Of a stretch of 20,000 bases of DNA, positions 2 to 19,999 are shown in pieces. The notes beneath the pieces are model-generated. The model was not told where the DNA came from, did not search any database, and was given only the letters and a program-made list of their open reading frames with translations. The stretch lies in NCBI GenBank assembly GCA_001724265.1, contig MEDY01000025.1, positions 115,777 through 135,776 on the forward strand. The letters are read 5' to 3'. The translations under genes were made by a program, and so were the position numbers. Numbering within the stretch: the first letter of the stretch is position 1; each line of letters starts with the position of its first letter. Source of the DNA: Rhizaria sp. SCN 62-66. Lineage: Eukaryota.

Positions 2-2038
2 GCGGCAGCGGCTTACTTTACCGATGTAAGGGCCTTCGCGCTCACACTGCTTGAGCGTGCTGTGTCACTCAACAACAGTACAGCCAGCAACAACAGCAGC
101 AATGCAACAAGCGCCACGAGCCGCTTTAAGGGCTCTGCTAATGCGACTGCTGCGAGCAATACGGGCGCTAATGTAAGTGCCTCATCTGCCTCAGGTGTAA
201 GTGCTGTCACGAACCGTGTTGCGACGCTGTTAGCTGCTATCTCTGCCTTTGACAGCTTTTGCGCTCAAAGCCACGATAACAAGCACAACTTCAACACTCT
301 GAACTCTGTCGCTGGCGGTGGTGGCAGCGCGACCCCGCCCTCACCCAATCGCAATAACAACAACAACAGCAGCGCTAGTAGCAGCTCTAATACCACTGCT
401 GCTGCTGCTGCGGCAACTGTTGTCGCGCGTGCCTTAGCCTCGCATCTAAGGACCAGCTCCAAGAACAATCTAAGTTCCTCCTCTGTGAGCAGCAGTAGTC
501 TAAGTAGTACCACCCCCCTTAGTTACGTCAACCTCGCCCGCGCTCTTCGTTTTATCGCCTTGATCGCCCACCGCCGCCGCACCCCGGCCTCTCCAGCCCA
601 CGGTCACCCCTCCAGTTTGCCGTCGCCGCCTTGCTCTCACGCCCGCGCGTCCCGCCCCGTCGGCGGTCTGCGTACAGTCTCGCTCAACGTGCCGCTGCCG
701 CCGCCGCTGGCCGCCACTGCTGCGGCGGCCGCGGCGGCGGGGGCCGTGGCCGGTGTGCTGGCGGGGGTGGAGCGGGCTCTGGCAGCGCTGCAGACTGAGA
801 TCAGGGACGCGGCGCTTGCTCAGGGCGGCACGGGTACCGGCAAGACTGCGAGTGCTGTTGCTGCGCAAGTCACGAGTACTCACCATATCACGGACGCTGC
901 TGCTGCTGTTGCTCATCAGCATGGTGTTGTGAATGGAGCTGGCTTCACTGCGATTGATATGGGGGCATTGGGGATGAGTGATGATGTTGATGCTGATCAT
1001 GATGACAGTGATGGCCAATTTGACCGCGCCAACAACAACAACAACAAAAACATTACATCCAATAGCAAGAGTAAGTCTGCTGCTGCTGCTGCTAAAGCGA
1101 GCAACAAGATGAGTTATGCATCAAGTCGTAACATTGATAACTACGCCACCGGTAATCACAGTAATGATGACGACGATGACGACGACGCTGAGGCCGGTAT
1201 CCGTTCTCTTTCTCGTGACGCTGCTGCCAGTGAAGATGATAACGACGTGTTTTACGACTTGGACGCTGCCGTTCTTCAAGAACTTGAAGATGCTAACGGC
1301 GACGAGGACGATATGGACCTCGATCTCGACAGTATTCAAGAACTTGAAGAAGATCCTGCTACTACAGCAGCGCGCGCGCAAGCGCTTGCATCTCGCCAGC
1401 TTGGAAACACCGGCACCGACACTGGCACTGGAGACGGCGCGAACGTTGCGACTGTCACCCATGCAGACACCACCATGAACGCGAACAGCATTGCCTCCAA
1501 GTCTAAGCCTCGCACACAGGCTCAGTCCAACACAGCTAAGCGCACTGCTGCTGTTAATGCATCTTCGCAGTTTCTGTCGTGCTCACAGTTGCAACTGCCG
1601 TCTCATGTCCCCGCCACGGCCCTGAGTGCGTTGCTCTCTCAGTCAGCCCGTGTCGCCCCCGCCCGAGCGCCCGCCCTCCCCGCACCCACACCCAAACCCA
1701 AGGCGCTCTCCTCTTCGTCGGCGACCGTGGGCGGCGCGCATAGCAGCGGTGTGACCGTGAGCAGCGGTGGTGGCAGTGACGTGCTGACTGAAGAGACGGT
1801 AAGCAAGGGCCGTCTCCCGGCTGAGGCGGCTCCCCCGACCGCTGACACGCTAGGACTGATCAAGCTCTTGGCCAAGATGACTGCGCAGAGCGCCGCGGTT
1901 GCCGCCGTGGGACTTGCACTGCCGCTGCCGTGGGCGGTGTACGCGTGGAGTGAGGAAAAGGGGCGCAAGAGGGCCGCTGTGACCGGCGCGGCGTGGGTGC
2001 AAGCGGCCCTGTTCGTTGACGTCAACACGCTTTCATAA
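2..2038 (+). CDS. Hypothetical low-complexity protein, 3' part (open at the window's left edge)
   Basis: The frame is open from position 2 (AAAAYFTDVRAFALTLLERAVSLN...) to TAA at 2036-2038. It is GC-rich with poly-A/S/N/D tracts between helical-looking segments, and composition drops abruptly to AT-rich after the stop. No family recognised. Confidence 0.75.
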   Translation, partial: AAAAYFTDVRAFALTLLERAVSLNNSTASNNSSNATSATSRFKGSANATAASNTGANVSASSASGVSAVTNRVATLLAAISAFDSFCAQSHDNKHNFNTLNSVAGGGGSATPPSPNRNNNNNSSASSSSNTTAAAAAATVVARALASHLRTSSKNNLSSSSVSSSSLSSTTPLSYVNLARALRFIALIAHRRRTPASPAHGHPSSLPSPPCSHARASRPVGGLRTVSLNVPLPPPLAATAAAAAAAGAVAGVLAGVERALAALQTEIRDAALAQGGTGTGKTASAVAAQVTSTHHITDAAAAVAHQHGVVNGAGFTAIDMGALGMSDDVDADHDDSDGQFDRANNNNNKNITSNSKSKSAAAAAKASNKMSYASSRNIDNYATGNHSNDDDDDDDAEAGIRSLSRDAAASEDDNDVFYDLDAAVLQELEDANGDEDDMDLDLDSIQELEEDPATTAARAQALASRQLGNTGTDTGTGDGANVATVTHADTTMNANSIASKSKPRTQAQSNTAKRTAAVNASSQFLSCSQLQLPSHVPATALSALLSQSARVAPARAPALPAPTPKPKALSSSSATVGGAHSSGVTVSSGGGSDVLTEETVSKGRLPAEAAPPTADTLGLIKLLAKMTAQSAAVAAVGLALPLPWAVYAWSEEKGRKRAAVTGAAWVQAALFVDVNTLS

Positions 2039-2465: not shown

Positions 2466-5400
2466 ATGTCCGCGCCGCAGACCGCCATCAGTGACGTCTC
2501 CGTCACCTTCCACCTCTGGTACGGCAATCTATCTTGAACCATTCTCTCGAACCAGCTCCAGCACACCTCATCACGCTCGTTACTTGCCCTCTCTTGTATC
2601 CACTCGCTCACACTCGAATCTCTCCCTTTCTCCGCAATGTTACTCTCTGCGCAGGACTGGTGCGGCTCAGACGCTGCTGGTCAATGGCAACACAACCGTT
2701 GCTGAGGTCAAGCAACGTCTCTGGCGCACTCAAAAGCTCCCTGGAGGTATGTTACTCTGACACAAAGCTCACCATCAGAACTTATCTTTTACGACCTGAT
2801 TGATCACGCTGATCACATTAGACGCCATGTAACTTCAGAATTCAGTTCAGATTCGTTGATTTGCTTTGAATCCGGCATATTTTGTCTTGTTTTTAACTCA
2901 TCTTCTATCAATTATTTAATTCCAATCGCTGCTTTCTTGATACCACCGCACCACCAACACCACCAACACCGGAAACTCTACAGAGATCGACTCTGCCTCC
3001 TACGTCATCGCTCTGTCAGACACACGCGTCTACTTCCCCGACCCCACCCCGATGGCCGACGTGTTCGACTACTCGCTCCTCATCGACCCGTTCCCGAACT
3101 CCAACGTCCACAACAACAACCCTGCCAACGCCTCCAACGCCACCACGTCGTCAGTGACTGAGCTCACCATCGATGTGGACTTTCTCCCCGCTAACTGGCG
3201 TCTCGACCACGACCAGCGCACGCGCGGCCTTCCCAGCGCGCCCCTTAACACGCTGCGGTGCTTCCCGGCCTCGCGCCGTGAGGCTAAGGCACTGTTGAAC
3301 CTATACATGTGGGAGCAAAGGTACCTCGTCTTTGAGGGATACACTCTCTATGTGTTCAAATCGCAGAAACACGCCCTAGCCGGCGAGAAGGCGCAGGTTG
3401 TCGTGCCGCTGGAGGGAGCCCACGCGTACTCGGTGTCTAACTTGACGCTCACGGGCTCCAGCAGCGGCGGCGGTAGCGGACCCGGGGGGATTAGAGGCGA
3501 CTCCACCCCACTGATGGCTGAGTCAACTTCCTCACACCAGAACCTGCTGTTGATCAAGCAGCACGACGCTGTCACCGCCACGCCATCGCCGATGGCTCTC
3601 ACCGCGCACTCCCGCTCCTCCAAGGCGGTGCTGTTGGCCCGCAGCACGCCTGGTAACCCCGTGTTTGCGTCCATGTTCACCAAGGATGACTTGGCCAAGC
3701 CCAGGGAGGGCGTGCTTGTCTTCTCCTTTGAGACGATGGGGGCCCGCGATGCCGTGGCCACGGTTGTTTCAGACCGCCACTTTAAGCACTGCAGGGCGGT
3801 GTGGGCTGCTGGTGCCCGTGAGCTCGCTCGGTACGTTTTTGAGCTTTGTTCTGAACCTAGACATATAACTCGTTGATAAGTTGTCTTGTAACGAATTATT
3901 CTGCTGTATTCGACGAAATAAGTTTCATTTAAATCTAAGAAATGTCGTTTACCTTGAAAATACGCTCCTTACATTATTCTTCATTCTGTTTCATTCTCTT
4001 TGTTTTGCCTCTATCCAGCCGCAACGCGTTGAACGAGCAGGGCATCTTCCGCCTTGCTGGCAACGGCGAGCACGTGGGCCGCGTTACCGCAGACCTCATG
4101 ATCGGCACTCTTGACCGCCTGCCCTACGTGCGCGACTCCAACGCCGTCGCCGACGCCATCAAGCGCGCACTTAGGAACATGCCGGAGCCGCCGATGACGT
4201 ATGCTTTGTACTCTGACTGGTTAGCCCTCGTCCCCAAGCCCCCTGCCGCGGGCGCTACTACGGCTGCGAACACGACGGACTCTGCGGTCAATTTGACTGC
4301 GATGCAGAGCGGGGTCGCCGAGCTCATGAAGCATCTCCCCGAACAAGTACGTCTCCTATCTCTAACTTCCACGTCATTTTGTGACTTGAGATATGTATCA
4401 ACGAGACTATTGTTAATGTATTCAAAGATATAAAACTAAATCTGATTAAATTATCGTATTTGACTATCAGTTCACACCGTATATATATATCAAAATATCG
4501 TTTTTCTTGTTTTCGCCCCTAATCTACGATAGAACCGTGCGCTGGTCCGCTCCGTGCTGCTCTACTGCCACCGCGCTTCGTCCCCCTGCCACGCACCCCA
4601 CTCCCTGATGACTCCCCGCAACCTCGCCGTAGTCTTCGCGCCCGTCCTGCTCCGCTCCCTCGCCGAGCTGCCTCACCAGGCGATCGCGAACCAGAAGCGC
4701 GCAGTCGAGCTCGTCGCCGTCCTTATCCAGCAGGCCCCTCTTCTGCTCACGCTGCCGCCCAAGGTCGGGCCGTACTCAGACTTCTCTTTCACCACCACCG
4801 CCGCTGCGGCCCCTGTGCCCGCCGCCGCCGCCCGCGCCGCGCTTCCGCCCTCCCGCCCCCAACAGCAGCAACAGCAGCAGCAATTGCCGCCCCCGCTGCC
4901 GCAGACCTCGGGCCCCCCCGGCTTGACTTCCGTCACCTCGGGCGGTCCACCCCCCTTGCCCGCCACCGCCCCTGGCAGCAGCATGGGGGGCCCTCCCCCG
5001 CTCACGGTCATTGCGGGCGCCCCCATGGTGACGCCTTCGGCCGCCGTCTCCCCGTCCAACACCGCCTACCCCCCCACTGCGCCGGCTACCACAACCAACG
5101 CCGGCTTTGTCGCCAACGCGGTGGCGCCGCCGCCGCTGCCGGCGCTGGCGGGCGTCAAGTCCACCGACGTCTACTCGACCTTCTCGGAGGCCGAGGCCGA
5201 CGCCGCCGCCGCCTCGGCCGGCGTGCCTCCGCCGCTGCCCGCGTCTTCCATCCCGCCGTCGCTCCCCAACAGCAGCAGCGCGAATATGCGCCGTTTCTCA
5301 GGCATCGTCGGCGTCCCCATCGCCACCCCGACCCCCTCGGCGGCTGCGCTCGCCGCCATCGTCAACGGCGCCGGCGCCAACGCTGCGGGGGGCGTAGTCG

Positions 5401-6366: not shown

Positions 6367-6626
6367 AGAAAATGCTTGCTGGGCGACCGAGCAACAGTCG
6401 AGCTGGCCCCGAATGGGAGAGCCTGTAGCGCGAGACAGCGTCATCTGGATAAATTGTAATTAATGGATTAAATAGTGTGCATCATGTAGAAATTGTGAAT
6501 ATTACCCAGAAATCTATCCTTGTTCAGGAACGCGATCTGGAAGCTTTGTTTGTGCCCAACGCAGTGCGACTCACCCTAGCCTTGCTCCCCGCTCTCCCAC
6601 GTTTCCCCCACCTCGCCATTCTTCAG

Positions 6627-7140
6627 ATGCTCGGTCGCTTCGTCGCTCAGGCTGCTAACAAGGGTATGTTGTATCCGCCTATTATTCACATTTACTATTA
6701 CATCCTCGTTTCGATGCAAACAATCCCCTCAAAGCCCAGCCCTCGCCCCCAAACCCACGCTTCTCTCACTGAACTCTTCAATCTTACCCCCTCGTCTCTG
6801 CTCTTGCTTTCGCCCTCTCACAGTCGTCCAGGGCCCCGCCCGCTCGTTCCACGGCACCCCCGCCGCGGCCGCTCACGGCTACAAGATGCCTTCCGAGGGC
6901 ATCGTCGCCCGCGCGTCGGACCCCTACGCTTCCCGCACCGCTGCCATCCGCAACTTCCTCTACACCAACTTCGTCCAGAAGGCCTCGTCCTCGGCGCTCA
7001 TGGTCGCCGGTCTCGCCGTTGTGTTCGAGCAGGCATACGAGAACGTCATGGAGTCGGCCTGGAAGAGCTCCAACGCTAACATGCAGTACGAGGACGTGAT
7101 CGCCACGTTCCCCGAGGTGCCCCCCAACTGCGACGAGTAA
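6627..7140 (+). CDS. QCR9: Cytochrome b-c1 complex subunit 9 (QCR9/UQCR10-like) with N-terminal extension; 2 exons, 117 aa
   Basis: join(6627-6663,6824-7140). The core LYTNFVQKASSSALMVAGLAVVFEQAYENVMESAWKSSNANMQYEDV fits the QCR9 pattern (Y..f.r.s.......g...FE.........w...N.g..y.di). The N-terminus MLGRFVAQAANKVVQGPARSFHGT resembles a mitochondrial presequence. Confidence 0.8.
6664..6823 (+). other. Spliceosomal intron of QCR9
   Basis: GTATGT...CTCTCACAG; phase 1, in frame with the 6886 ORF. Confidence 0.8.
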
Positions 7141-8564: not shown

Positions 8565-9430
8565 GCGGAAACGGCGAAGCACAGCGTTGCTGCTCTTGCT
8601 CTGCAGCAACGATGAGGATTGCATAAGGATGTTCTTCCGTTGACAAGTCTCAATCGCCTTTGGTCACGGCAGCGTCCATTGCGTTTTTGCAGGTAATCCG
8701 TAGTAGTAAACGTGTGTTCACTAAGCGTATGCGCGATTTGGTTTAGCATGCGCACGTCTCAAGGTAAACACAACAAGTCTTAATTTATACCAATGACATC
8801 AGTCTCCTCTAAGCAGCCACACTCTATGTGGTGCTTAATAACGTGAACGACCATTGGTTCTCTCTATCTTTTCATCACTTTCTTACTTTCTCTAGCATAA
8901 CACACGTGCTATCCGATCACAGCAACAAATGCCAGTTGCGTACCCCGTACATTGGCACTGTTTGCTGTGTGTAAGTATGCACAACAAGTGTTCTGTTACC
9001 CCCTCCGTTACACAGTTATATCAGTCTCTCTGACACTCTGCTTTGTGAACTCGCAATACCTACTTGCATATGCACGTGCAGCATTCGATAACATTACCAA
9101 CAACTGGCACTCTCAACCAGGTTGTTGTCCGTCGTCTTTGCTCTTGGCTTCAGCAGTTGGGACTGTTTGTCATATTTGTAGTGTGCCGTATTTTTAATCA
9201 CATTGAAAACGATACTAATACACAACATTAAACACAAAACAATGTCAATTGTTCATTATGTATTCAAATTGCTTAGTTCTACAACACTTTGGCCATCATA
9301 CAGCAGACTCGCATTGCAGTCTCTCAACTTTTCACAATAACCGCCTTGCCTTCATTGCTAGCGCACAGTCAGTCACACGCACTCGCTTACAGTCACATTT
9401 TTTGCTGACTCAGCATGTTTGCCGACTCAC

Positions 9431-12400
9431 TCAGCGGTTGGCCGCTAGCATCGCCGTCGCAGCCCCCACATGCCCCCCTGTCGCCTCGAGGGCCCTGACG
9501 GCGGCGGCCTTATCATAACCCAAAAGCACGAGATTCTCAGCCAAACCAGCGTACCGCGACTGCGACACAGCCGCCCCCGCCCCCGCCCCCACCGCCGCCG
9601 CTACCGCTACCGCTGCACTGCCGCTGCCACCCGCCAGCGACTGTGGCCCCAGAGGCGCCATCAGAGCCGACGGTGTGGCGGCAGCGGCCGCGGCGGCGGC
9701 GGCGGGGTCAGTCCGCCTGGGGTGGGTGGTGAGCCCGGCTACAGAGGCGTAGGGCAGCGGCGGCGCCACAGCGGCACCAGCGCCAGTGGGAATGTTAGTC
9801 GCGTGGACACTCGAAGTATAGCCGCCTCCGGAGAGGGGCGGGCGGGCACTATTGGTGCTGTTTCCGTAATTATTGTTGTTGTTATTGCTACTGCTAGTCC
9901 CCAGAGCCCTCGCAATCGCACTACTCGCATTAGCGTTAGGATTAGCAGTGTTGGAGTTGGTGTTGCTCTGAGATGAGGCGATGGTTGCGACCGAGATGCA
10001 AGGTCCCGTGATGACACTGAGATCCCGACCGAGGCCCATCGCGTTCTGTAGCATCCCTCCAGTGCCAGCGCCAGAGCTGGCGCCAGAGCTGTTGGGGTTA
10101 CGATTACGGCGCTGTCGCTGCTGAGAACGATGCTTCTGCTGCTATTTAGCTCCAGCAGCAGCAGCATCATCAGCAGCAGGACTCGCTCCAGTCGCAACAT
10201 GCTCACGAGCATTAACGTCATTGCTGCTGCTGCTGCTAATGTTGTTGTTGTTGTCGGTAAGAGCTGCGGCCACGGCGGAGATGTCACTGTCGCTTCCACC
10301 GGTCACCGTCCTGGTGAGGCCACCACTTGTTGTCGCGCTCGCACTCGGACTCGCAGTCCCGGACGCAGTCGCATTAGAGGCGGCGGCGGCGGCAGAGGCG
10401 GCGGCAGAGGCGGCGGCGGCAGCAGGGTTGGTATGTGACTGTGGCGTTGGCAAAGGCACACCATCCTTATCAAAGTTAAGCCGCGCGCCACCAGTCTCCT
10501 CGTCATCGTCGTCGTCATCATCATCATCATCATAGTAGTCTCCATTACCATCATCATCGTCAGCGTCGTCGTCATCATTGGTGTCGTTCAAATTGCCGTA
10601 GGTGTTATTGCCCCACGGCGGCTTAACTTCGGAACTGCCCGCAGTTGCGAAGTGAAGCGGCGCAATACACTCGGCAGAGGGCGGCCTAACTTTAAACACG
10701 ACACCACCCTTGTACCCACCAGTACTAGACGTTGTCACAGCAGGAGGAGCATTCGCATCAGCAACAGCTGTGTTGTTGTTGTTGTTGTTATTGTGGTGAT
10801 CACTCTTACTTGTTGCTACACTGCTCGTATTGGCGCTACTTTTACTATTGGTGTTGTTGTTGTTATAGACAGCGTTGGGGGGAGCGACTGTGAGCGCCAC
10901 GAGTCCCAGTCGCGGGTACCACACCGACGCCGGCTGCGAAGTTAAGCCGCCACAAGCGTAAAACATAGTCGCACATCCCCGAGCACAGTCATCCAATAGC
11001 CCGGGACCATCTTCATCGTCGTCGTCATCGTCGTCGTCGTCGTCGCCGCGACCACGATTGTCGTCTTCCGAGCTCAGGTCCGTCAAGCGACCGCCACCAC
11101 CATCGTCATCGTCGTCGTCGTCTTCGGCGGTGCGAGTGCGGGAGTACTTAGAACCGCCGCGGCTTGACTTTGAGACGGCGGTACCCTTACCCGGGGTCAT
11201 GTTTACACCAGAGCCAGAGCCAGTCGCAGTAGAATTCGCATCGGAAGTACCGGCATTCTTGTTGCTCTTGCTCTGACTCGGGTCAGTTTCAGAGTCGATA
11301 CCAAGCGCCAAAGCAACATTGGTGCCAGTACTAGCATCAGTAGTAGAGCTTGAACTGTTCGTCTTCGTTCCCCTCGGCTTGCGACTACTACTGCTCCGCC
11401 TCTGACGCTGTTGCTGCCGCTGCCGCTGCCGCTGCCGCTGCCGAAGCTTCTCAATAGCAGTCAAAGTATCATCATCGTCGTCATCGTCGCCGCCGTCGAC
11501 GGCTGCGGCGCAGCTCAACTGACCGTGAGCGCCGCGGGTACCGACCGTGGTCGTCACGAGTGCCGCCGCGGGCACCACGACGCCCCACAGCACAAGCCTC
11601 ACCAGCGGCGACTTCTCCACGGCGGTCAACGTGCGCAGCGACGGCCGCAAGAACATGGTGTACACTGCGGCAGCGGCGGCGCCGACGAGCGGCTCAAGCC
11701 GGAGCGCAGGGTAAAAGAGGCAGTATCCGAGCGCGGCCGCCGCCGGGAAAGCGACGGTCGCCGAGAGCGGCAGCGGGCAGCCTGGGAGGCGGCGTGACGG
11801 GAGAGCGCGGCCGGCGGCGTCGATGAGCAGGAGCGCAAACAGGGCGGCGTCGGGGCCCGAGAAGCAGAGCGGAGTGGCGAAGCACGTGGCGGCAGCGGGT
11901 AGTGCGGCCGCGGCGGGGAGGGAGCCGTTGGAGGAGAGCGACTGGGCTGCCGACAGCGACTGGTCAGTGGCGATGTAAAGAAAAGCGGCCAGAGATGGGA
12001 ACAAGCGGGTGGTGACTGCGAAGAGGAGGAACGTGAAGAGCGAAATGAGGGCCGTGACGGCGGCAAGGGCGTGGAGCAAGTAGGCTGACCCGCGCCAGAG
12101 CTCTAAGGGTGTCCCGAGGCTAAGGGTCGCCACTGATGCCAAGACGGCGCGCAGTGTCGAGGCCGGGACGAGGGGGAAAAGGGCCAAACGGGCGAAGACG
12201 GTGACTGTCCGCCATAGGGATGGAGCAACTGCAGCAGCAACAGCCCCCGCAGCACTAGCGGCGGTACCAGTGGGTGTACCCGTGCCAGCGTCAGTACTCG
12301 TGCCAGCTCCGGGCGTTGTTGTCGCTGCAGACGCGGAGGCGGAGGCAGAGGAAGGGTCTAGCAGGGCTTGGAGCGTGTGCGCGCAGAAGCTCGTGTGCTG

Positions 12401-12538
12401 GGCGAGGGTGTACACTGTGCTGATGAGAGCGACGAGCAGGAACCAAAGCACAAGCGAGCGCGTGATGGCGGGCACGGAGCGGAGCTGGGAGATAGCGGCG
12501 CCGCGGAGGCGGCGGAGCAGGTCCGCGGGAAGACCCAT
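9431..12538 (-). CDS. Rhomboid-like pseudoprotease with C-terminal UBA domain (RHBDD/UBAC2/Dsc2-like architecture), interrupted by one in-frame TAG at 10142-10144
   Basis: Probable ATG at 12538 (MGLPADLL). Rhomboid-superfamily motifs: VPAITR, LWRTVT, LGTPLELWRGSAYLL, SGPDAALFALL, FPAAAALGYCLFYP. The same frame continues past the TAG to a UBA domain (AENLVLLGYDKAAAVRALEATGGHVGAATAML) and TGA at 9431-9433. The product is 798 aa to the TAG, or 1035 aa if it is read through. Confidence 0.8.
11410..11443. repeat. Coding microsatellite (CTGCCG)n encoding QR dipeptide repeats on the minus strand
   Basis: ctgccgctgccgctgccgctgccgctgccg, one of many GCT/AAC/GAC-type coding repeats in the window. Confidence 0.8.
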
Positions 12539-13534
12539 CTGCGTGCAGAGGGGGAACGGGCGGCCGCTGTTGCTGCTTCTGCGCAAGCGTCGCTGAGGGC
12601 TTTGGTGACGAGCGAGGCTTGGCGCGAGGCGGGTTCGAGTTAGGATCGGGTGTTGGTTTCCAAGATGAGATTCTATAGACGTGAAAAAGATGTGGTGAGT
12701 TTTTACACATATGGTAACAGCGTGATGTGAGTTTTGTTGTGAATAGAGGCGATGGTGGATCGCTGCAGACATAATGGTACGGGAGACAGGGTCGAGGTGG
12801 ACTGTGACCATCGCCATGACTTGAGTTGTGGATTGTGAAACATAGCATGCCATTGTAGAGCTATAATTAGATCAAAGAACATAATATTGCGTATAAATAT
12901 CGCTGTCGTTATTATGTGCGAGATTGACGTTCGTAAGATGCCGATATCGCTATCTGAAAGGTTGCTGCCGTTGCCACCGCTCCCCTTTGCGGTGGTCACA
13001 GATCGATCTGTCTAGTCCATCAGGCATGTCCAATTTTCAAGTCGTCTGTAGGGACTGAACAGTATTCCAGAAGGGCAAACACCTGATATACTGTGTAACA
13101 ATTTGTAAAATATAATATACTTCAAATTTAGTGACAGAGCTTTCTATTTTATTGAGATATCTTTGATATAGTAACCGTAAATTTTCTTTAGAAGCTGATG
13201 AAATTCTAATGATATGATGGTCTTAAAAAACGGCATAACTTGTGAAATTATGATATTATATAGGAAGTGTTTGTTCCAAAAGGAATTTTAATTGGGACTT
13301 TTGTAGCCTTCTGTTACATTGAGATATCGCTAGATATTCTCGCTCACCACAATCACGTTTTCGCTTTTTTCGCGAACCTGACCGAAGCTTCCGACCTTAC
13401 CTCGATTCCAGCCCCAGTCAAGTGGAGTTGGCTTCAAATATCATCTCTGTTTCCTGACTTCCCGACCGTCAACACACACAAGACATCTCGAATCAGTTTT
13501 TTCAATCCGGTAAACGGCATTTTTCTACCCGAAA
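12539..13534. promoter_or_regulatory. Divergent intergenic/promoter region between the rhomboid-like gene (-) and the SET gene (+)
   Basis: Head-to-head gene arrangement with a strongly AT-rich core at about 13090-13300. No specific element identified. Confidence 0.45.
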
Positions 13535-16224
13535 ATGACCCGCCCCACTCTCCTCGCGGCAGCTATCCTCGCCGTTCTGGCGCTGCTCCCGGCTGCTTTG
13601 TCATCAGCCCCCGCCGCCGCCGCCTCCGCCGCCTCCGCCATCCCCGACTTCGCGCACGCCCTGCCCTCGTGGCTGCGCGCGCACGGCGCCTCGGTTGCCC
13701 CCGTCACCGTCGGCTCGGCCTCGGGCGCGGTGTTCGACGCCGCCGACACCACCTTCGCCCGGCCGGGTCTGTGGGCGGAGACTGACCTCTTAGCGGGCGC
13801 TATCGTCGCCGAGCTGCCGTCCTCGCTCTTCCTCTACAGCGACTCATCTTTCGCCCCCGCCAGCTCCTCCTCTGCGGCGGCGGCGGCGGCGGACTGGTCC
13901 CCTGCGGAGGGTTCGTCCGCGGCGCATATGGCAGCGTTACTCGCATCGCTGGGCGGCACCAACGTGACTGACCCTCTGGCTCTGCTGGCCACCCGCGTCC
14001 TCTACGAACACGCCCACTCTGTGAACAACAACAATAAGAAGAAGAAGGGCACGACTGGTGCGACGACGCCGACCGCCGCCTTCTCCCCTTTCATGTCTTC
14101 CCTCGCCCCCGCGCCCGCCGGCCACGTCGCCCTCACTCCCTCCGACCTTGCGGCCCTGCACCTCTCCCCGGCCTCCGCGCGCTCCTCCCCGCTCGCCGCC
14201 GTCTCCGCCGAACACACTGCCCTGTGCGCCCGCATGGCCACGGTGCTGCGTTCGCTGGTCACGCCTGATCTGTCGAACGAGCTGCTGGCCGAGCTCCGTA
14301 ACGACCCAGACACAGCTGCCGCGCTCGCCGCCGCGGGCCTTGCCGGGGACGGGGCCGCGGCCACCCCGGAGGCGGTGGCGGCCGCGCTGGGCGCGGGCCG
14401 GATCGAGGAGACGCCCTACGCCCGCGCGCTGCCGCACGGGCCGGAGGGGCTGGCTCCGGAGGCCTTCACCCGGGCGTATGCGCAGACTCTGGCCAGCGCG
14501 GTCGCCCTACCCCCTCGCCACCGTCGCCGTCGTCACCGTCACTCGAGCTCTCAGTCGAAGACTGATCGCGCTGAGGATCACACTGAGGATGAGTGGGAAT
14601 GGGGCATGGTGCCGTTGCTCACGGTCGTGAACCACGTCGCCAGTCTAAGTACCCCCTTAGAGCCGCGCGCAGTGACCGCCGCCACCGCCACCGCTCTGAA
14701 CGTTGTCATTGACGATGATGTGAACACTGCGGCTAAGGGGTACTTAGCCAAGGGTAAGGGTGCGGCTTCACGTGACGGCCCCAGTGCAGAGATCCGTGTC
14801 ATTCCTGTTCAGACTCGCAAGGCTGCTACTGCTACTGAGACTGAGACTGAGACTGTTGAGTACAAGGTAGTGCTTGTGGCGAAGCGTGACATCCCTGTCG
14901 GCGCTCAAATCACGGTCGACTACGGCCAGTTCATGCGGAGTCCTCTTGAGGACGAGAGCACGTCTAACAATGGCAACAACAGTACGGAGGCGAAAGCTAA
15001 CGCTCTGTTAATCAGTGGTAAGAGCACTCTCCCCTTAGATAGCGACGGTGTGAATGCTTCGAACACCGATGCGGACTATTACTACCCTCTGCCTGCCATT
15101 CCTGTTTCTAACCCGCTGCTGTTGATCCACTTCGGCGCCGCGCTGCCCGCCAACCCCCACGAGGGCGTGCTACTACAAGCCGCCGTCACCGCCGCCGGTG
15201 ACGACGAGGCTACTAACTCAACTCCTACCCCCCCGAATGGTAAGCCGCCAGCGGCGATGAGTGCAGAAGCGAAGCTCGATGAGAAGGAACGGGTCGCCCT
15301 CCTCACCCGCCTCCTTTCAGTCAATGCGTTTCCGTCGGCGGCGTCACTGACTCTGGCGTCACCGCTGCGCTCACGGTCACAAAAGGAGTTTATGCAGGCC
15401 TTGCGGGCGGCGCAGCTGTCCCTGCCTGAGCTCCAGTCGCTCGAGAGTACGTAACGCAACTTAACATTTCTCGATGATATAAAACGTTTGTAGAAAGATA
15501 AGTGTATAGTTAGTGAAATATATCGAATCTACATATGTATGTACCGTTTTGTGTTTATTTCACTCACATCGCCGTCCTCATGTATATCTTCTGTATTTTG
15601 TGTTTAGGCATGCTCGAGCTGCGTTTCGACGCTGACAAGGGTTATTTCTCCCTCCACAACGAGCTTGCCACGGCCCTCGGCGCGTTCGGCTCTATGGAAG
15701 AGGCCCTCGCTGGCTCCACGGCCGCGTTTGAGGACGACGCCTCTGAGTGGGCCCTCGTCGTCAAGAAGTTAGGCCGCACCGCCGCTGAGGCGCACAAGGC
15801 CCGTCTCCTCCTCTCTCACAGTCAGAGCGCCAACGCCAACACTGCCGCGAATGCTGCTGCTGCTGCAAATGCGAATGCGAATGTGGAGGCGTTGTTGGCG
15901 AGCCTTGAGGGCTCTCTGGCGCTGCTGCAGGAGCAGACCTGGGAGGCTCAGCGGGTGGCATCGCGCCTCGCCACCGCCCGCGCCGTCCGCTCCGTCGCTC
16001 TCGACGCGCTGGCCGCCGTGGCCGACGTGTTCGCCGACCTCTCGGGCCGCTGGCGGCGCGACGCGCGCGCGCTGGCGGGCGACGCGGAGGCGCCGCAGGA
16101 TGTGCGGGCCGCAGCGGCACGGTGGGAGGCCGAGGTCGCCGGGTGGGAGGCTGAGGCGGGGGCCTGGGCCCAGGGCCACGCCAAGTGGGGGAAGGAGCTC
16201 GTCGAGGTCATGGTGCCCAAGTGA
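13535..16224 (+). CDS. SET-domain protein (Rubisco LSMT/SETD3/SETD6 class) with N-terminal signal peptide; 2 exons, 842 aa
   Basis: join(13535-15446,15608-16224). SET motifs: GLWAETDLLAGAIVAELPSSLFL, MVPLLTVVNH, LVAKRDIPVGAQITVDYG, SNPLLLIHFGAALPANPHE. LSMT substrate-binding-like segment: SLHNELATA...AFEDDASE. Signal peptide: MTRPTLLAAAILAVLALLPAALS. Confidence 0.85.
15447..15607 (+). other. Spliceosomal intron of SET gene
   Basis: GTACGT...TGTTTAG, AT-rich; phase 1, joins in frame with the 15535 ORF. Confidence 0.85.
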
Positions 16225-18064
16225 GTCAGTGAGTGACTAAGGGGGGTACTTAGACGGGTAAATGCGAGATGGTTAGACGAGGTGTTGTCCCGAGATCGCT
16301 TTTGCTGTCAGAAGGTGGTGTGTACATTTTATGGTAATAATGCACACTACTGAATGATGATAGATGCGCAAGGTGGACGTATACCTCTCTCGTGTTCGCC
16401 GTCGTAAGAATCTCGTTGACTCTAAGTAGAATCAATGGCGGGTCAGACCTACTGTGACATCATATTAGTACATAATACAATAATGTAACTGTTTTTGAAC
16501 GCAGCATGATGTAGTCTCTCGAATTGAAATCTCTTTGTGAGAACGTGTATCATAATCAGGCAAGAGCGATTATATGACTTATCTGGTGCAGAACGTAGAC
16601 GTGTTGATGATGCAGGGATATTATGCACTGATTGTATTAAGCGACGAGTGGTGTACGTGACAGCTCAAGACATTGACTTTAGGACACCCGAAAACACACA
16701 CGGACGCAGCCTCAAACACGACAATCACATAAACACACGCATTGTTAAATGCCCAAGTTTAAATGACTATGCGTGCCAATGAAGCAAACGACGGAAGTTG
16801 TGTGCAAGCGAGTGCAAAAGACAAGCGAGAGTTGGAAACGTGCGATATTAACGATGTTAAGACAAAGCGCGTACGTACTCAGTCAGCGCTGAGAATAACA
16901 CATCATTGGTACGGCTTCCGTGTGTCCAGTGATGCGATACGAGAGCAGCTGACTGAAACTACGCGTAAAAGATAAGAGTTCACTGAAGACACGGCAGATT
17001 AAACACTTACATTCCTTCTTTTGACGGGGAATACTTGCACTGACTGTGACATTATGATGACGAGACAGCAGAGCAAGTGTTGGATAAGGGAGAGATGATA
17101 AGGCGTGAAATGCTATGTGAAGCAGTAGACTGTGAAAAACAATGGAGGGCGAACCTTTCCATATATGCGTTGCGACATGAACAAATAAACCATTGGACAC
17201 ACCACATGGAACCACTCTATACACTGCAAAACTGTGCAAAGCAAGAGAGAACAGGAAATGAAACCCAAACACGTAATGTAAAAGCTTCATTTCTTTCATT
17301 CATGCATCGACATAGCCCTGGAGTGCGCAAGCAATGTTGATCGAGAGTGAGAGATACAAGTGAAAGCGCACTAGCGTGCACAAACACTTGGAGATCCACA
17401 TAAGCAAGCAGAGATCCACACAGACAGTAATTTGTCGCATTTTTAAGGAACCAAATATAAAAAATATAAAAGCTACAATTAAACGTTGATTGCCGACCCA
17501 CAACCTCTCTCAAAGCTAAGCCGCCGACTCACACCCACAACAGACCGACTGACAGTGGTGTGCGTATGCGACGAGCAGAGAGAGTGGGAGATACACTGGG
17601 TAAAACGGGAATCATGAGTGAAAACGATGAGGTAACCGACGCCGCCGCCTCCCTCACGTGTTGTACTGTTCTGTGGGGCGGGGTGTCAGTGAAAGTCGCG
17701 TCCAGTCAAGAGCTGCAGAGAGTATCATCCAAAGTGGTTGCATGTCGCGTCGCTAAAGCTATCATTGAATGCCGCTGTGTGTGCGCGTGTGTGTAGACGG
17801 GGTGTGTTTGCTTAACGGGTGATGCAAAGTACGCTGTCGCGTACTTAGTTCAGACCGCAGAGATAACCACAACCACAAAACAACCACCAAACAACAACAA
17901 CAACGTCAACACAAAGACAGAAACCAGTAGTGACCCAAGAGCATTGACTGGGAGTAGACGATGGATGACATAGCTAAACTACAGCAAAACACAGTACGAA
18001 AAAGAGAGACCGCGAACTAGCTCTCATCGCTTTCGCTGTACAGTCACACGCGCACTGCGTGTGC

Positions 18065-19999
18065 TTAGAAGCCGACAGCAGCAACGGCAATGGCCACGAG
18101 CACAGCCACGGCGGCGGACAGCGCGGCGGTGGCGGCGCTGTTGGGGTTGGCGCACTTCAGCGTGGAATCGCAGGTGGCAGTGACGCAGTCGGTGTCGATC
18201 TCGCACGAGTAGAGCAAGCTACAGGCGTTGCAGCCGTCACTGCCGCCGCAGTCAGTCGCGGTCTCGGTGCCGTCCTTGACGCCGTTGGAGCACGAGGCGG
18301 GCACAACGGCGGTGCTGAGGGCCGAGGCGCGCAGCACGGGCTTGTCGGCGACGTTGGACACGGCGGTGTTGAGTTCGTCCTGCTTGGCGGCAAGCTGGGC
18401 CTTGACGTCGCCCTCGGTCATCTTGGCAGCGACGGCGAAGGTGAGCTCGAGCTCGACGTGGGTCGGCGTGCCAGTCTGCGCGGCGGCATCAAGCGCGGCG
18501 TCGGTGGTGCCGACGGCGCCCGTGTAGACGAGCTTCTGCGACTTGACCACGATGTCGGCGAAGTCACTGCCCGGCAGACGGCGCTGGTACTCGAGGCGGA
18601 TGGCGTTGAGCACGGGCTTGGTGAGCAGCGTCGTGGAGATGATGCTCAGAGTCATGGTCACAACGTTGGTGCCCTGCTTGACGGCGGACACGGCGGGGAC
18701 TTGGACCGACGGGATCTGCGCGATGGGCGCGCCGGCGGCGTTGGAGATGATGATGTTCTCCAGCGAGCCCTCGAAGGCGGTGGTCGGCACGGTGAGACCG
18801 GTGCAACGGATGCGGAAGGGCGCGTCGGCGATGGCGTCAACGGCGGACTTGAAGGTGAGCGCAACGGTGGTGGACTCGGTGAAGCCGCCGTTGTTGGCAG
18901 GCACGGAGACGGTGAGGGCGGACACCTTCTTGTTCCACTTGAGCGCCTGGCACTCGATGTCGCCGCTGGCGGACACGACAGCGGGCAGACGGAAGTCGAC
19001 GACGGCGCCGGCCGGGATGGCAACGCTGAGGGGCGCGAGCGAGAGCGTGTACGCAGTGGTGGTGGACTCGCCGGCGACGGTAAGGTCGGGCATCAGGTAA
19101 GCGTACTCGGTGCCGATCGAGGGGACGCCGATGGCAGCGAGGATGACGGACGAGGAGCGGGCGACGACGGCGTGCTGGCTGGTGTAGACAGTGGCGCTGG
19201 TGACAGTGGACGTGGTGATGCCGGCGGGGCGAGTGATGCCGACGCAGACAACGCTGGAGCTGGCACTGGGCGCGGCGCGCGCATCGAGACCGGCCTTAAA
19301 GCTGAGCTTGAGCTGCGTGCCCTGCGCGGTGGTCTTGGCGATGCGGGCAGTCGCGATGGGGACGGCGTCGAGCAGAGGCAGGGTCGCGTTGTAGCAGTCA
19401 ACAGCCAGGTCGGTCGCGACGGTGTGCGAGTACTGGAAGGCGGCCGGAAGAGTGATGTGGACCTCGCCCGCGGCGGTGATGACGCGCGCGAGGCTGCCGA
19501 TGGTGATCGTGACAGAATCGGTAGGTGCGAGGAGAGCAGTGCGCGGCTTGTAGCCCTCGATGTAGTACGCCTTGAGCGCCTCCAGCTTGGGGTCGATGTC
19601 GCTCGCCTGCAGCGGTGCGCCGGCAGAGACCTGCGCAGTGAAGCGGGCAGCGGTGACAGCGCCGAAAGGCACAGCGACGGCGTCAACGACGACGTTGCCG
19701 GCGGCGGTCAGGACGCGGACAGTCGCGGTGTTACCGACAACATTAGCATCAACCTCGGACTCGTTGTTGACAAAGCCGGAGCACGTAAGCGCAACAGCAG
19801 CGTTGGCAGCGGTGGTCTTGGCGACGATGACGGTAAGCGCGCGCTGCTCGGCGTTGTACGCGGCGGCACCGAGCGAGCACGTGACGGCACCCGCGACGGA
19901 GACGGCGGCGGAGGGGCCGAGCGTGACGGAGACGACGGAGCCCTGCTCGAGAGCGAGGTACTTGGGCATGGTGAAGACAAGCGAGAAGCGGGACGCGGA
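18065..19999 (-). CDS. Repetitive cell-surface protein with Cys-rich module and probable GPI-anchor signal, 3' part (open at the window's right edge)
   Basis: The frame is open to the window edge (SASRFSLVFTMPK...), so ATG 19969 is probably internal. It has strong codon bias, Ala/Val/Thr-rich beta repeats with paired Cys, and the module CSNGVKDGTETATDCGGSDGCNAC...DC...C. The C-terminus PNSAATAALSAAVAVLVAIAVAAVGF* has no cytosolic tail. Confidence 0.85.
   Translation of the reverse strand, partial: SASRFSLVFTMPKYLALEQGSVVSVTLGPSAAVSVAGAVTCSLGAAAYNAEQRALTVIVAKTTAANAAVALTCSGFVNNESEVDANVVGNTATVRVLTAAGNVVVDAVAVPFGAVTAARFTAQVSAGAPLQASDIDPKLEALKAYYIEGYKPRTALLAPTDSVTITIGSLARVITAAGEVHITLPAAFQYSHTVATDLAVDCYNATLPLLDAVPIATARIAKTTAQGTQLKLSFKAGLDARAAPSASSSVVCVGITRPAGITTSTVTSATVYTSQHAVVARSSSVILAAIGVPSIGTEYAYLMPDLTVAGESTTTAYTLSLAPLSVAIPAGAVVDFRLPAVVSASGDIECQALKWNKKVSALTVSVPANNGGFTESTTVALTFKSAVDAIADAPFRIRCTGLTVPTTAFEGSLENIIISNAAGAPIAQIPSVQVPAVSAVKQGTNVVTMTLSIISTTLLTKPVLNAIRLEYQRRLPGSDFADIVVKSQKLVYTGAVGTTDAALDAAAQTGTPTHVELELTFAVAAKMTEGDVKAQLAAKQDELNTAVSNVADKPVLRASALSTAVVPASCSNGVKDGTETATDCGGSDGCNACSLLYSCEIDTDCVTATCDSTLKCANPNSAATAALSAAVAVLVAIAVAAVGF

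Follow-up and report, generated by a model that had tools for sequence, protein, structure and literature searches.

In the stretch of 20,000 nucleotides analysed here (the window; positions 115,777 to 135,776 of contig MEDY01000025.1, assembly GCA_001724265.1, Rhizaria sp. SCN 62-66), a single in-frame TAG codon interrupts a minus-strand gene for what appears to have been one protein, in which a long low-complexity linker joined a multi-pass membrane domain to a UBA domain at the C-terminus. The reading that we favour, at a probability of about 0.4, is that this is a genuine UAG stop codon of an organism using the standard code, with a main product lacking the UBA domain and a minor full-length form that would be made by near-cognate read-through. 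The organism is an uncultured wastewater eukaryote.

The minus strand reads GGA GCT AAA TAG CAG CAG AAG CAT CGT, with the in-frame TAG at 10144-10142. This is the codon that an earlier inspection of the letters of this DNA (the sequence-only reading) had pointed out, together with its flanking codons (GAK-stop-QQK). Upstream of the TAG the frame is open for 909 codons from stop to stop (10142..12871), or for 798 codons when counted from the ATG at 12538, and downstream it remains open for 236 codons (9434-10141) before a TGA is reached (9433-9431). The same 236 codons had been noted at first sight as leading to a UBA domain and a TGA, and the family PF00627 was indeed recognised at their end with a score above its cut-off. 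A GTGAGT directly follows this TGA (9425-9430, minus strand) and may mark an intron within the 3' untranslated region (UTR). As regards the other end of the gene, the open reading frame (ORF) calls P0002 and P0004 of a public protein collection begin at another in-frame ATG, 93 codons further upstream; on the two flanks of the ATG at 12538 the GC content is 0.52 (12539-12871) and 0.67 (12238-12538). The linker upstream of the TAG is rich in Ala, Asp, Ser, Gly and Asn and consists mostly of triplet repeats (both triplet and hexamer repeats were detected). The positions of all parts of the gene are given in Table 1.

Very few relatives of this protein were found. A word-indexed search of 5.8 billion proteins returned only two within the length range of 569-1812 amino acids, and an exhaustive HMMER search with the first 340 residues against 1.84 billion cluster representatives gave four matches (P0002, P0003, P0005 and P0006), only three of which are relatives from outside the species. 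P0003 (945 amino acids) is a continuous protein whose membrane domain is followed by a long low-complexity linker and, at the C-terminus, by a UBA domain. P0006 (769 amino acids) is likewise continuous, with a long low-complexity linker; its membrane domain is 29% identical over 163 aligned positions (E 5e-10) and its UBA-like end matches weakly (E 0.018). P0005 (389 amino acids) stops within the membrane domain and may be cut. A profile search of proteins revealed no relatives of 147-595 amino acids, no DNA related to the locus was found in metagenome contigs, and an exact pattern spanning the site, in which the first base of the TAG was left open as N, gave no match.

In a pairwise alignment, the anchors AAGA and SGAS.GA lie 20 residues apart both in the window protein and in P0003, and because this spacing is equal the TAG replaces exactly one sense codon. 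Comparison of the sequences supports one ancestral gene for all three parts, from the multi-pass membrane domain through the long low-complexity linker to the UBA domain at the C-terminus; the combination of membrane domain and C-terminal UBA proposed by the sequence-only reading is thus found in uninterrupted form in P0003 and P0006. In these two proteins the membrane domain and the UBA domain share one polypeptide unconditionally, whereas in the window they do so only if the TAG is read through.

Several observations indicate that the frame downstream of the TAG is not open by chance and still looks translated. When the 708 bases of this piece were shuffled by mononucleotides, only 39 of 20000 shuffles kept all 236 codons open; the next in-frame stop follows 1-29 codons after the seven putative terminators of the window, as against 236 codons after the TAG. 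A codon-usage score was trained on 3183 codons from the other ORF stretches of the window (our own exon models, with no RNA check). In frame 0 it gave 0.175 per codon for the membrane domain, 0.233 for the upstream linker and 0.178 for the downstream piece (0.182 for the downstream linker alone), in agreement with the earlier claim that the coding-like composition does not change across the TAG. The score was negative in both other frames, and past the TGA it was negative in all three. A 187-codon ORF in another frame (9739-10302, minus strand) is open across the TAG, and its product is unlike the orthologue; since the non-gene frames score negative there, we read it as a probable by-product of the repeat-rich sequence.

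Conservation points in the same direction. Identity to P0003 amounts to 163/329 positions in the membrane domain (50%), 123/469 in the upstream linker (26%), 68/195 in the downstream linker (35%) and 26/41 in the UBA domain, so that the linker is better conserved downstream of the stop than upstream of it. The window and P0003 share two invariant blocks in the downstream linker, G.GGML..A.GL.R..SV..GP and APPLPYA.V.GLTTH. Judged from these comparisons, the sequence past the stop carries the mark of protein-coding constraint, and a stop of recent origin would look identical in this respect.

The C-terminal domain itself is a bona fide UBA domain. PF00627 matches residues 202-232 of the downstream piece with E 2.9e-6 and 27.4 bits (cut-off 22.4), the final 40 residues agree with the end of P0003 at 26 positions, and the best match of the domain among PDB sequences is the C-terminal UBA of UBE2K (E 0.005).

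The stop stands in the classic leak-prone surroundings (AA|UAG|C): the preceding codon is AAA, which places A at positions -1 and -2, and C is found at +4. In yeast, according to PMC4615788, adenines at -1 and -2 stimulate UAG read-through and the bases at +4 rank C>U>G>A, in line with the earlier remark that a C after the stop favours leakiness. Both features together, AA in front and C behind, are present at 21 of the 4198 coding positions of the window and at 3 of its 93 CAG codons. Taken singly, a codon ending in AA precedes 62 of the 4198 positions and C follows 966 of them; AAA accounts for 14 of the 117 Lys codons. At +4 the seven putative terminators of the window have G in six cases and A in one, never C, and AA precedes none of them. 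A purine at +4 is a strong-termination context, the opposite of that of the internal TAG.

On these grounds we propose the following scheme. Like UBAC2, fission-yeast Dsc2 and RHBDD3, the ancestral protein would have had a membrane domain that is rhomboid-like and catalytically dead and, beyond a long linker, a UBA domain that binds ubiquitin at the C-terminus. A sense codon in the disordered linker of this single-protein gene, most simply CAG or AAG, would then have been replaced by UAG. Most ribosomes would halt there and release a membrane protein devoid of the UBA domain, while a minority would decode the UAG by a near-cognate tRNA (in yeast, Tyr is inserted at UAG in 92% of cases, Gln in 5% and Lys in 3%; PMC4150775), add the 236 codons and yield the full-length, UBA-bearing form. 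The scheme supposes that read-through reaches a useful level, and that read-through rather than the recency of the stop preserves the downstream frame.

Comparable systems exist. In Drosophila syn, kelch and hdc the stop itself is conserved between species. The gene described here resembles these documented read-through genes (PMC4615788) in having a single in-frame stop followed by a long, conserved, protein-like extension, and differs from them in that both orthologues lack the stop. It also shares sequence features with the viral type I read-through signal, UAG-CAA-UYA (PMC4615788), and with the two-adenine rule of yeast, namely UAG, C at +4, a CAR codon next and A at -1 and -2.

A number of points weigh against this interpretation. 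The stop is not shared by P0003 and P0006, which have sense codons throughout, and was found only in near-identical contigs of the same species; conservation of the stop in related species, the usual hallmark of programmed read-through, is thus not seen in the sequences compared. Of the type I motif only the CAG codon is present, the second downstream codon being CAG instead of UYA. In the 123 nucleotides formed by the TAG and the next 120, no stimulatory fold was detected (z +0.53; 142 of 200 shuffles fold as well or better). The four contigs that carry the split hardly differ, which allows for a very young allele, and its youth would by itself account for a downstream frame that is still intact. 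The features of the context were chosen after the site had been seen, although both are textbook determinants, and the terminators as well as the training exons come from our own unchecked models. The case as a whole is built on sequence.

The strongest alternative, which we consider only slightly less probable, is a plain and recent nonsense allele (CAG or AAG to TAG) in a near-clonal population, in which the UBA domain is lost, the downstream frame is intact through youth and read-through is at background level. It would account for a stop that breaks an ORF of continuous ancestry and that neither orthologue has, and the same-species contigs, 100% identical except for one repeat unit, provide no time depth. 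Next to the TAG is a Gln/Lys-rich stretch, whose codons are one base change away from TAG, the missing stimulatory RNA structure is what this explanation would lead one to expect, and yeasts tolerate the loss of the UBA domain (PMC11555709). Read-through was ranked above it because a random nonsense hit would seldom fall in an AA|UAG|C context, in contrast to a stop favoured by selection for its leakiness or one whose leakiness alone makes it tolerable. In addition, the 708 repeat-rich bases past the stop show no frame damage, although the gene does have repeat-length variants, all of them in frame: P0002 has one unit fewer than P0004 and the window in an RQ repeat at about 11400-11440, and one contig of sequencing run X4 carries TGT inserted behind 10851, within an Asn run. 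The two explanations nevertheless stand close together, because the stop is absent from the orthologues, the contigs lack time depth and the context was examined after the site had been seen. The read-through option of the sequence-only reading is therefore kept as the favoured one by its rare context and held back by a stop that the orthologues do not share.

A change of the genetic code, with UAG as a rarely used sense codon (probably for Gln) or as an ambiguous stop/sense codon of the nuclear code, seems highly improbable. None of the seven putative terminators (4 TAA, 3 TGA) is a TAG in our gene models, as the sequence-only reading had stated for the gene ends of the window, the internal TAG adjoins Gln codons, and UAG-only reassignment has arisen in several eukaryote lineages (PMC5304391, PMC11687900). 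However, if TAG made up 15-25% of stops, a result of 0/7 would be expected 13-32% of the time. A GTGAGT at 16221-16226 (plus strand) overlaps the TGA that ends ORF 15517-16224 and may represent a 3' UTR intron; alternatively, this ORF may extend into another exon, and its TGA would then drop out of the terminator count.

The frequency of the codon argues more directly against such a change. In-frame TAG was found once in the 4218 codons of the window (1035 in the gene and 3183 in the other ORF stretches), as compared with 117 CAG/CAA codons, which sets a 95% upper bound of 4% on its share of Gln positions. The frequent in-frame UAG that marks a UAG-reassigned code was thus not observed in the window. 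The known UAG-only codes (Iotanema, UAG=Gln; the rhizarian exLh, UAG=Leu; phyllopharyngean ciliates) are similar in that UAG stands in frame within a conserved gene, and, as in a UAG-only code, only TAA and TGA terminators were seen here. They carry far more in-frame UAG, with roughly half of the transcripts, or an even larger share, containing it: 384 in 71 genes of exLh, and UAG in 348 of 730 contigs of Iotanema, where it is nevertheless called scarce (PMC5304391), and 1131-2431 at conserved sites of ciliate genomes (PMC11687900). A rare leaky context would, moreover, be unexpected around a sense codon. Neither a tRNA gene nor an Rfam match was detected in the window. The single TAG had already been taken at first sight as an argument against heavy reassignment, which the codon counts uphold; the option of UAG=Gln that stood beside it is disfavoured by the same counts and keeps a low probability.

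We give even less credence to two separate products, in which the UBA piece would start at an internal ATG by reinitiation or from a transcript of its own. An ATG-started ORF of 202 codons (P0007) does exist downstream of the TAG; however, the 34 codons that separate it from the TAG score as coding together with the rest and align to the orthologue up to the conserved GGML block. Reinitiation after an ORF of 798 codons is not expected.

The least probable explanations are those that deny the TAG either in the mRNA or in the DNA. As to the first, removal by a short, atypical in-frame intron or by another event at the RNA level hardly fits the locus. The three inferred introns of the window (Table 1) differ markedly from their exons in GC content, and two of them (3832-4018 and 15448-15607) open with GTACGT; a further GTACGT lies at 4347, and because it precedes the bound of 4436, which was set from the end of an ORF, the 5' end of intron 4436-4532 is unfixed. 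In-frame excision of the TAG that introduces no new stop would be possible with 59 GT..AG pairs of 30-400 bases, such as 10216-10142 (75 bases) and 10198-10142 (57 bases). However, no donor of the form GT[AG][ACT]GT lies on the minus strand inside the gene, so that none of these pairs is of the local type, in keeping with the earlier remark that no AT-rich intron of that type spans the TAG; their GC content is 0.53-0.62 as against 0.30-0.33 in the three introns, and with equal anchor spacing in P0003 there is nothing surplus to splice out. The GTGAGC at 10206, called out of phase with the adjacent AGs in the sequence-only reading, is so indeed: its distances to those at 10142, 10139, 10136 and 10133 are 65, 68, 71 and 74 bases, respectively, and the only AGs with which it pairs in frame are at 10057 and 9826.

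As to the second, an artefact of sequencing or assembly, or else a minor allele taken up by the assemblers, is to be given equally little weight. In the public protein collection, the upstream ORF is represented by P0002 (889 amino acids) on one contig and by P0004 (891 amino acids) on three, one RQ unit apart, both terminating at ...AAAAGAK, and the downstream ORF by the ATG-started P0007 (202 amino acids) on four contigs; no full-length form from the same species was found among proteins of 569-1812 amino acids. A one-off assembly error is unlikely because four contigs in two repeat-length alleles all carry the split, the independence of these contigs being uncertain, and the base-call error once considered as an option loses ground accordingly; the site is not a homopolymer either. 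The window was also compared with contigs of the runs X2, X3, X4 and X5 at 90% likeness, at which the low-complexity repeats drew thousands of foreign contigs. Long pieces of the window were recovered without differences in X2 and X3 (labelled as bioreactor and wastewater metagenomes) and with few differences in X4, and no contig among those listed for X2-X5 covers 10142-10144, which leaves some room for an artefact. X2 and X3, labelled as different samples and studies, have identical contigs, depths and differences and may be one data set filed twice, so that some seemingly independent records may be one. In X5, an RNA library, contig record 28 is colinear on 9571-9933, and record 26 (3801-4052) is colinear through the inferred intron 3832-4018. 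Because record 26 crosses this intron, the library contains RNA that is unspliced, or DNA, and is no proof of transcription.

The membrane domain deserves separate comment, since it had been labelled a rhomboid pseudoprotease. Hydrophobic segments lie at about residues 24-46, 118-136, 150-185, 224-242 and 310-334; against the six helices of the rhomboid fold, hydropathy indicates five clear segments and one weaker one. Neither Rhomboid (PF01694) nor DER1 (PF04511) of Pfam matched the window protein or its full-length relatives at E<=1; when the cut-out domains were scanned singly, one of the four family members matched PF01694 weakly (E 0.0037). A search of the PDB with a profile of the four sequences brought up no rhomboid chain at E<=10, and hhalign against Escherichia coli GlpG was non-significant (probability 0.5%, E 0.11). 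The look-alike evidence comes from a single source, the ESM Atlas, and from the orthologue P0003. With whole P0003 the nearest clusters are Der1-like/UBA and Rhomboid+UBA (0.90, 194 shared features), and with its residues 1-320 Rhomboid PF01694 accounts for 17 of the 30 nearest clusters (top score 0.93, 188-191 shared features). The Atlas model of P0003, a poor one with a whole-protein pLDDT (predicted local distance difference test) of 0.47, gave TM (template modelling) scores of 0.51-0.61 against Rhomboid+UBA, RHBDD2, RHBDD3 and Der1-like models, every row being marked as under the bar. By these language-model and predicted-structure look-alikes, and not by Pfam, the domain is a candidate rhomboid-like one, and the protein would belong to a very divergent rhomboid-like + UBA lineage missed by Pfam. 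The original label is accordingly backed by the look-alikes of the orthologue and by the weak match in one of four relatives, and finds no Pfam match in the window's own protein.

If the fold is that of a rhomboid, the domain is presumably inactive, because there is no His among the 29 invariant columns of the four-sequence alignment A2, whose helix assignment is unverified, and P0003 has Ala in place of the Ser in the C-x-S-G stretch. Absence of the Ser-His dyad, as expected for a pseudoprotease, is thus suggested by four sequences. A WR (or xR) motif in loop L1 is a feature of the rhomboid-like superfamily (PMC12615303), and R117, invariant in A2 and preceded by A, A, L and H, is a candidate for it; the sole local hhalign match, itself non-significant, sets FARLAL on FWRYFT of GlpG. 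The stretch ELWRGS was also considered as the WR motif and dropped, as the only local GlpG match puts it on LGGAVEKRLGS.

RHBDD3, Dsc2 and UBAC2 are inactive members of the superfamily with a ubiquitin-associated domain (PMC12615303), and UBAC2 is an orthologue of Dsc2 (PMC11555709). Members of this type associate with a UBX protein (UBXD8/Ubx3) and an E3 ligase complex; no gene for such a partner was identified in the window. The window protein resembles them in its N-terminal multi-pass domain, placed near Rhomboid/DER1 clusters of which several carry a UBA, in its C-terminal UBA and in the lack of a conserved catalytic His; it differs in that its membrane domain is unseen by Pfam and its frame is broken by a stop. 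Its low-complexity linker alone has about 660 residues, as compared with 300-450 amino acids in total for the look-alike clusters. By analogy, the protein may serve a ubiquitin-ligase quality-control complex as the subunit that recognises substrates and thins the membrane, while its UBA would hold ubiquitin chains. Since yeasts do without the UBA domain (PMC11555709), a product lacking it could be functional.

Table 1. Features of the gene and of the window (positions are those of the window)
Feature	Position	Strand	Basis or remark
Putative start codon (ATG)	12536..12538	-	First ATG whose product aligns with the N-terminus of the orthologue P0003
Multi-pass membrane domain, residues 1-334	11537..12538	-	Identity to P0003 and P0006, hydropathy, Atlas look-alikes
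Upstream low-complexity linker, residues 335-798	10145..11536	-	Composition, coding score, alignment with P0003
In-frame TAG; AAA 5', CAG CAG 3'	10142..10144	-	Sequence read directly
Downstream linker, 196 codons, same frame as the upstream part	9554..10141	-	Coding score, alignment with P0003
Conserved blocks in the downstream linker	10001-10066 and 9722-9766	-	Alignment of the window with P0003
C-terminal UBA domain (Pfam match 9446-9538)	9434..9553	-	PF00627
Terminal TGA, then G	9431..9433	-	P0003 ends at the aligned position; next in-frame stop 6 codons on
Putative terminators	2036, 6093, 7138, 8562, 16222	+	TAA or TGA, then purine
Putative terminators	9433, 18067	-	TAA or TGA, then purine
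Inferred introns	3832-4018, 4436-4532, 15448-15607	+	ORF breaks; 97-187 bases, GC 0.30-0.33 (exons GC 0.6-0.8)

Among the neighbouring sequences on the plus strand we identified an exon with a RhoGAP domain (3939-4430, E 1e-10), a QCR9/UQCRX-like subunit of complex III (6580-7137, E 1.3e-7) and ribosomal protein L20 (8118-8561, E 8e-26), presumably the organellar bL20. Two long ORFs rich in Ala, Ser and Thr, at 18065-19999 (minus strand, 644 codons) and 2-2038 (plus strand, 678 codons), are cut by the ends of the window and match no Pfam family; the end of the former resembles that of a surface protein, with a Cys-rich stretch and then a hydrophobic tail.

Among the 8 best of 65 literature matches, we did not meet a combination of stop-codon read-through with a rhomboid or UBA domain. 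Were UAG a sense codon, the window would offer an early stage of a UAG-only nuclear code change outside the known lineages, and the gene would be one of its first visible uses. If the stop is a nonsense allele and nothing else, it would represent a natural knock-out of the ordinary sort, affecting a UBA domain which yeasts, too, manage without. If, as we favour, read-through is real, a single stop codon would set the share of a membrane quality-control adaptor that bears the UBA domain, and would thereby act as a simple translational dial on a component of ERAD (endoplasmic-reticulum-associated degradation) or Golgi degradation, one newly arisen through the interruption of an old gene and not through the extension of one.

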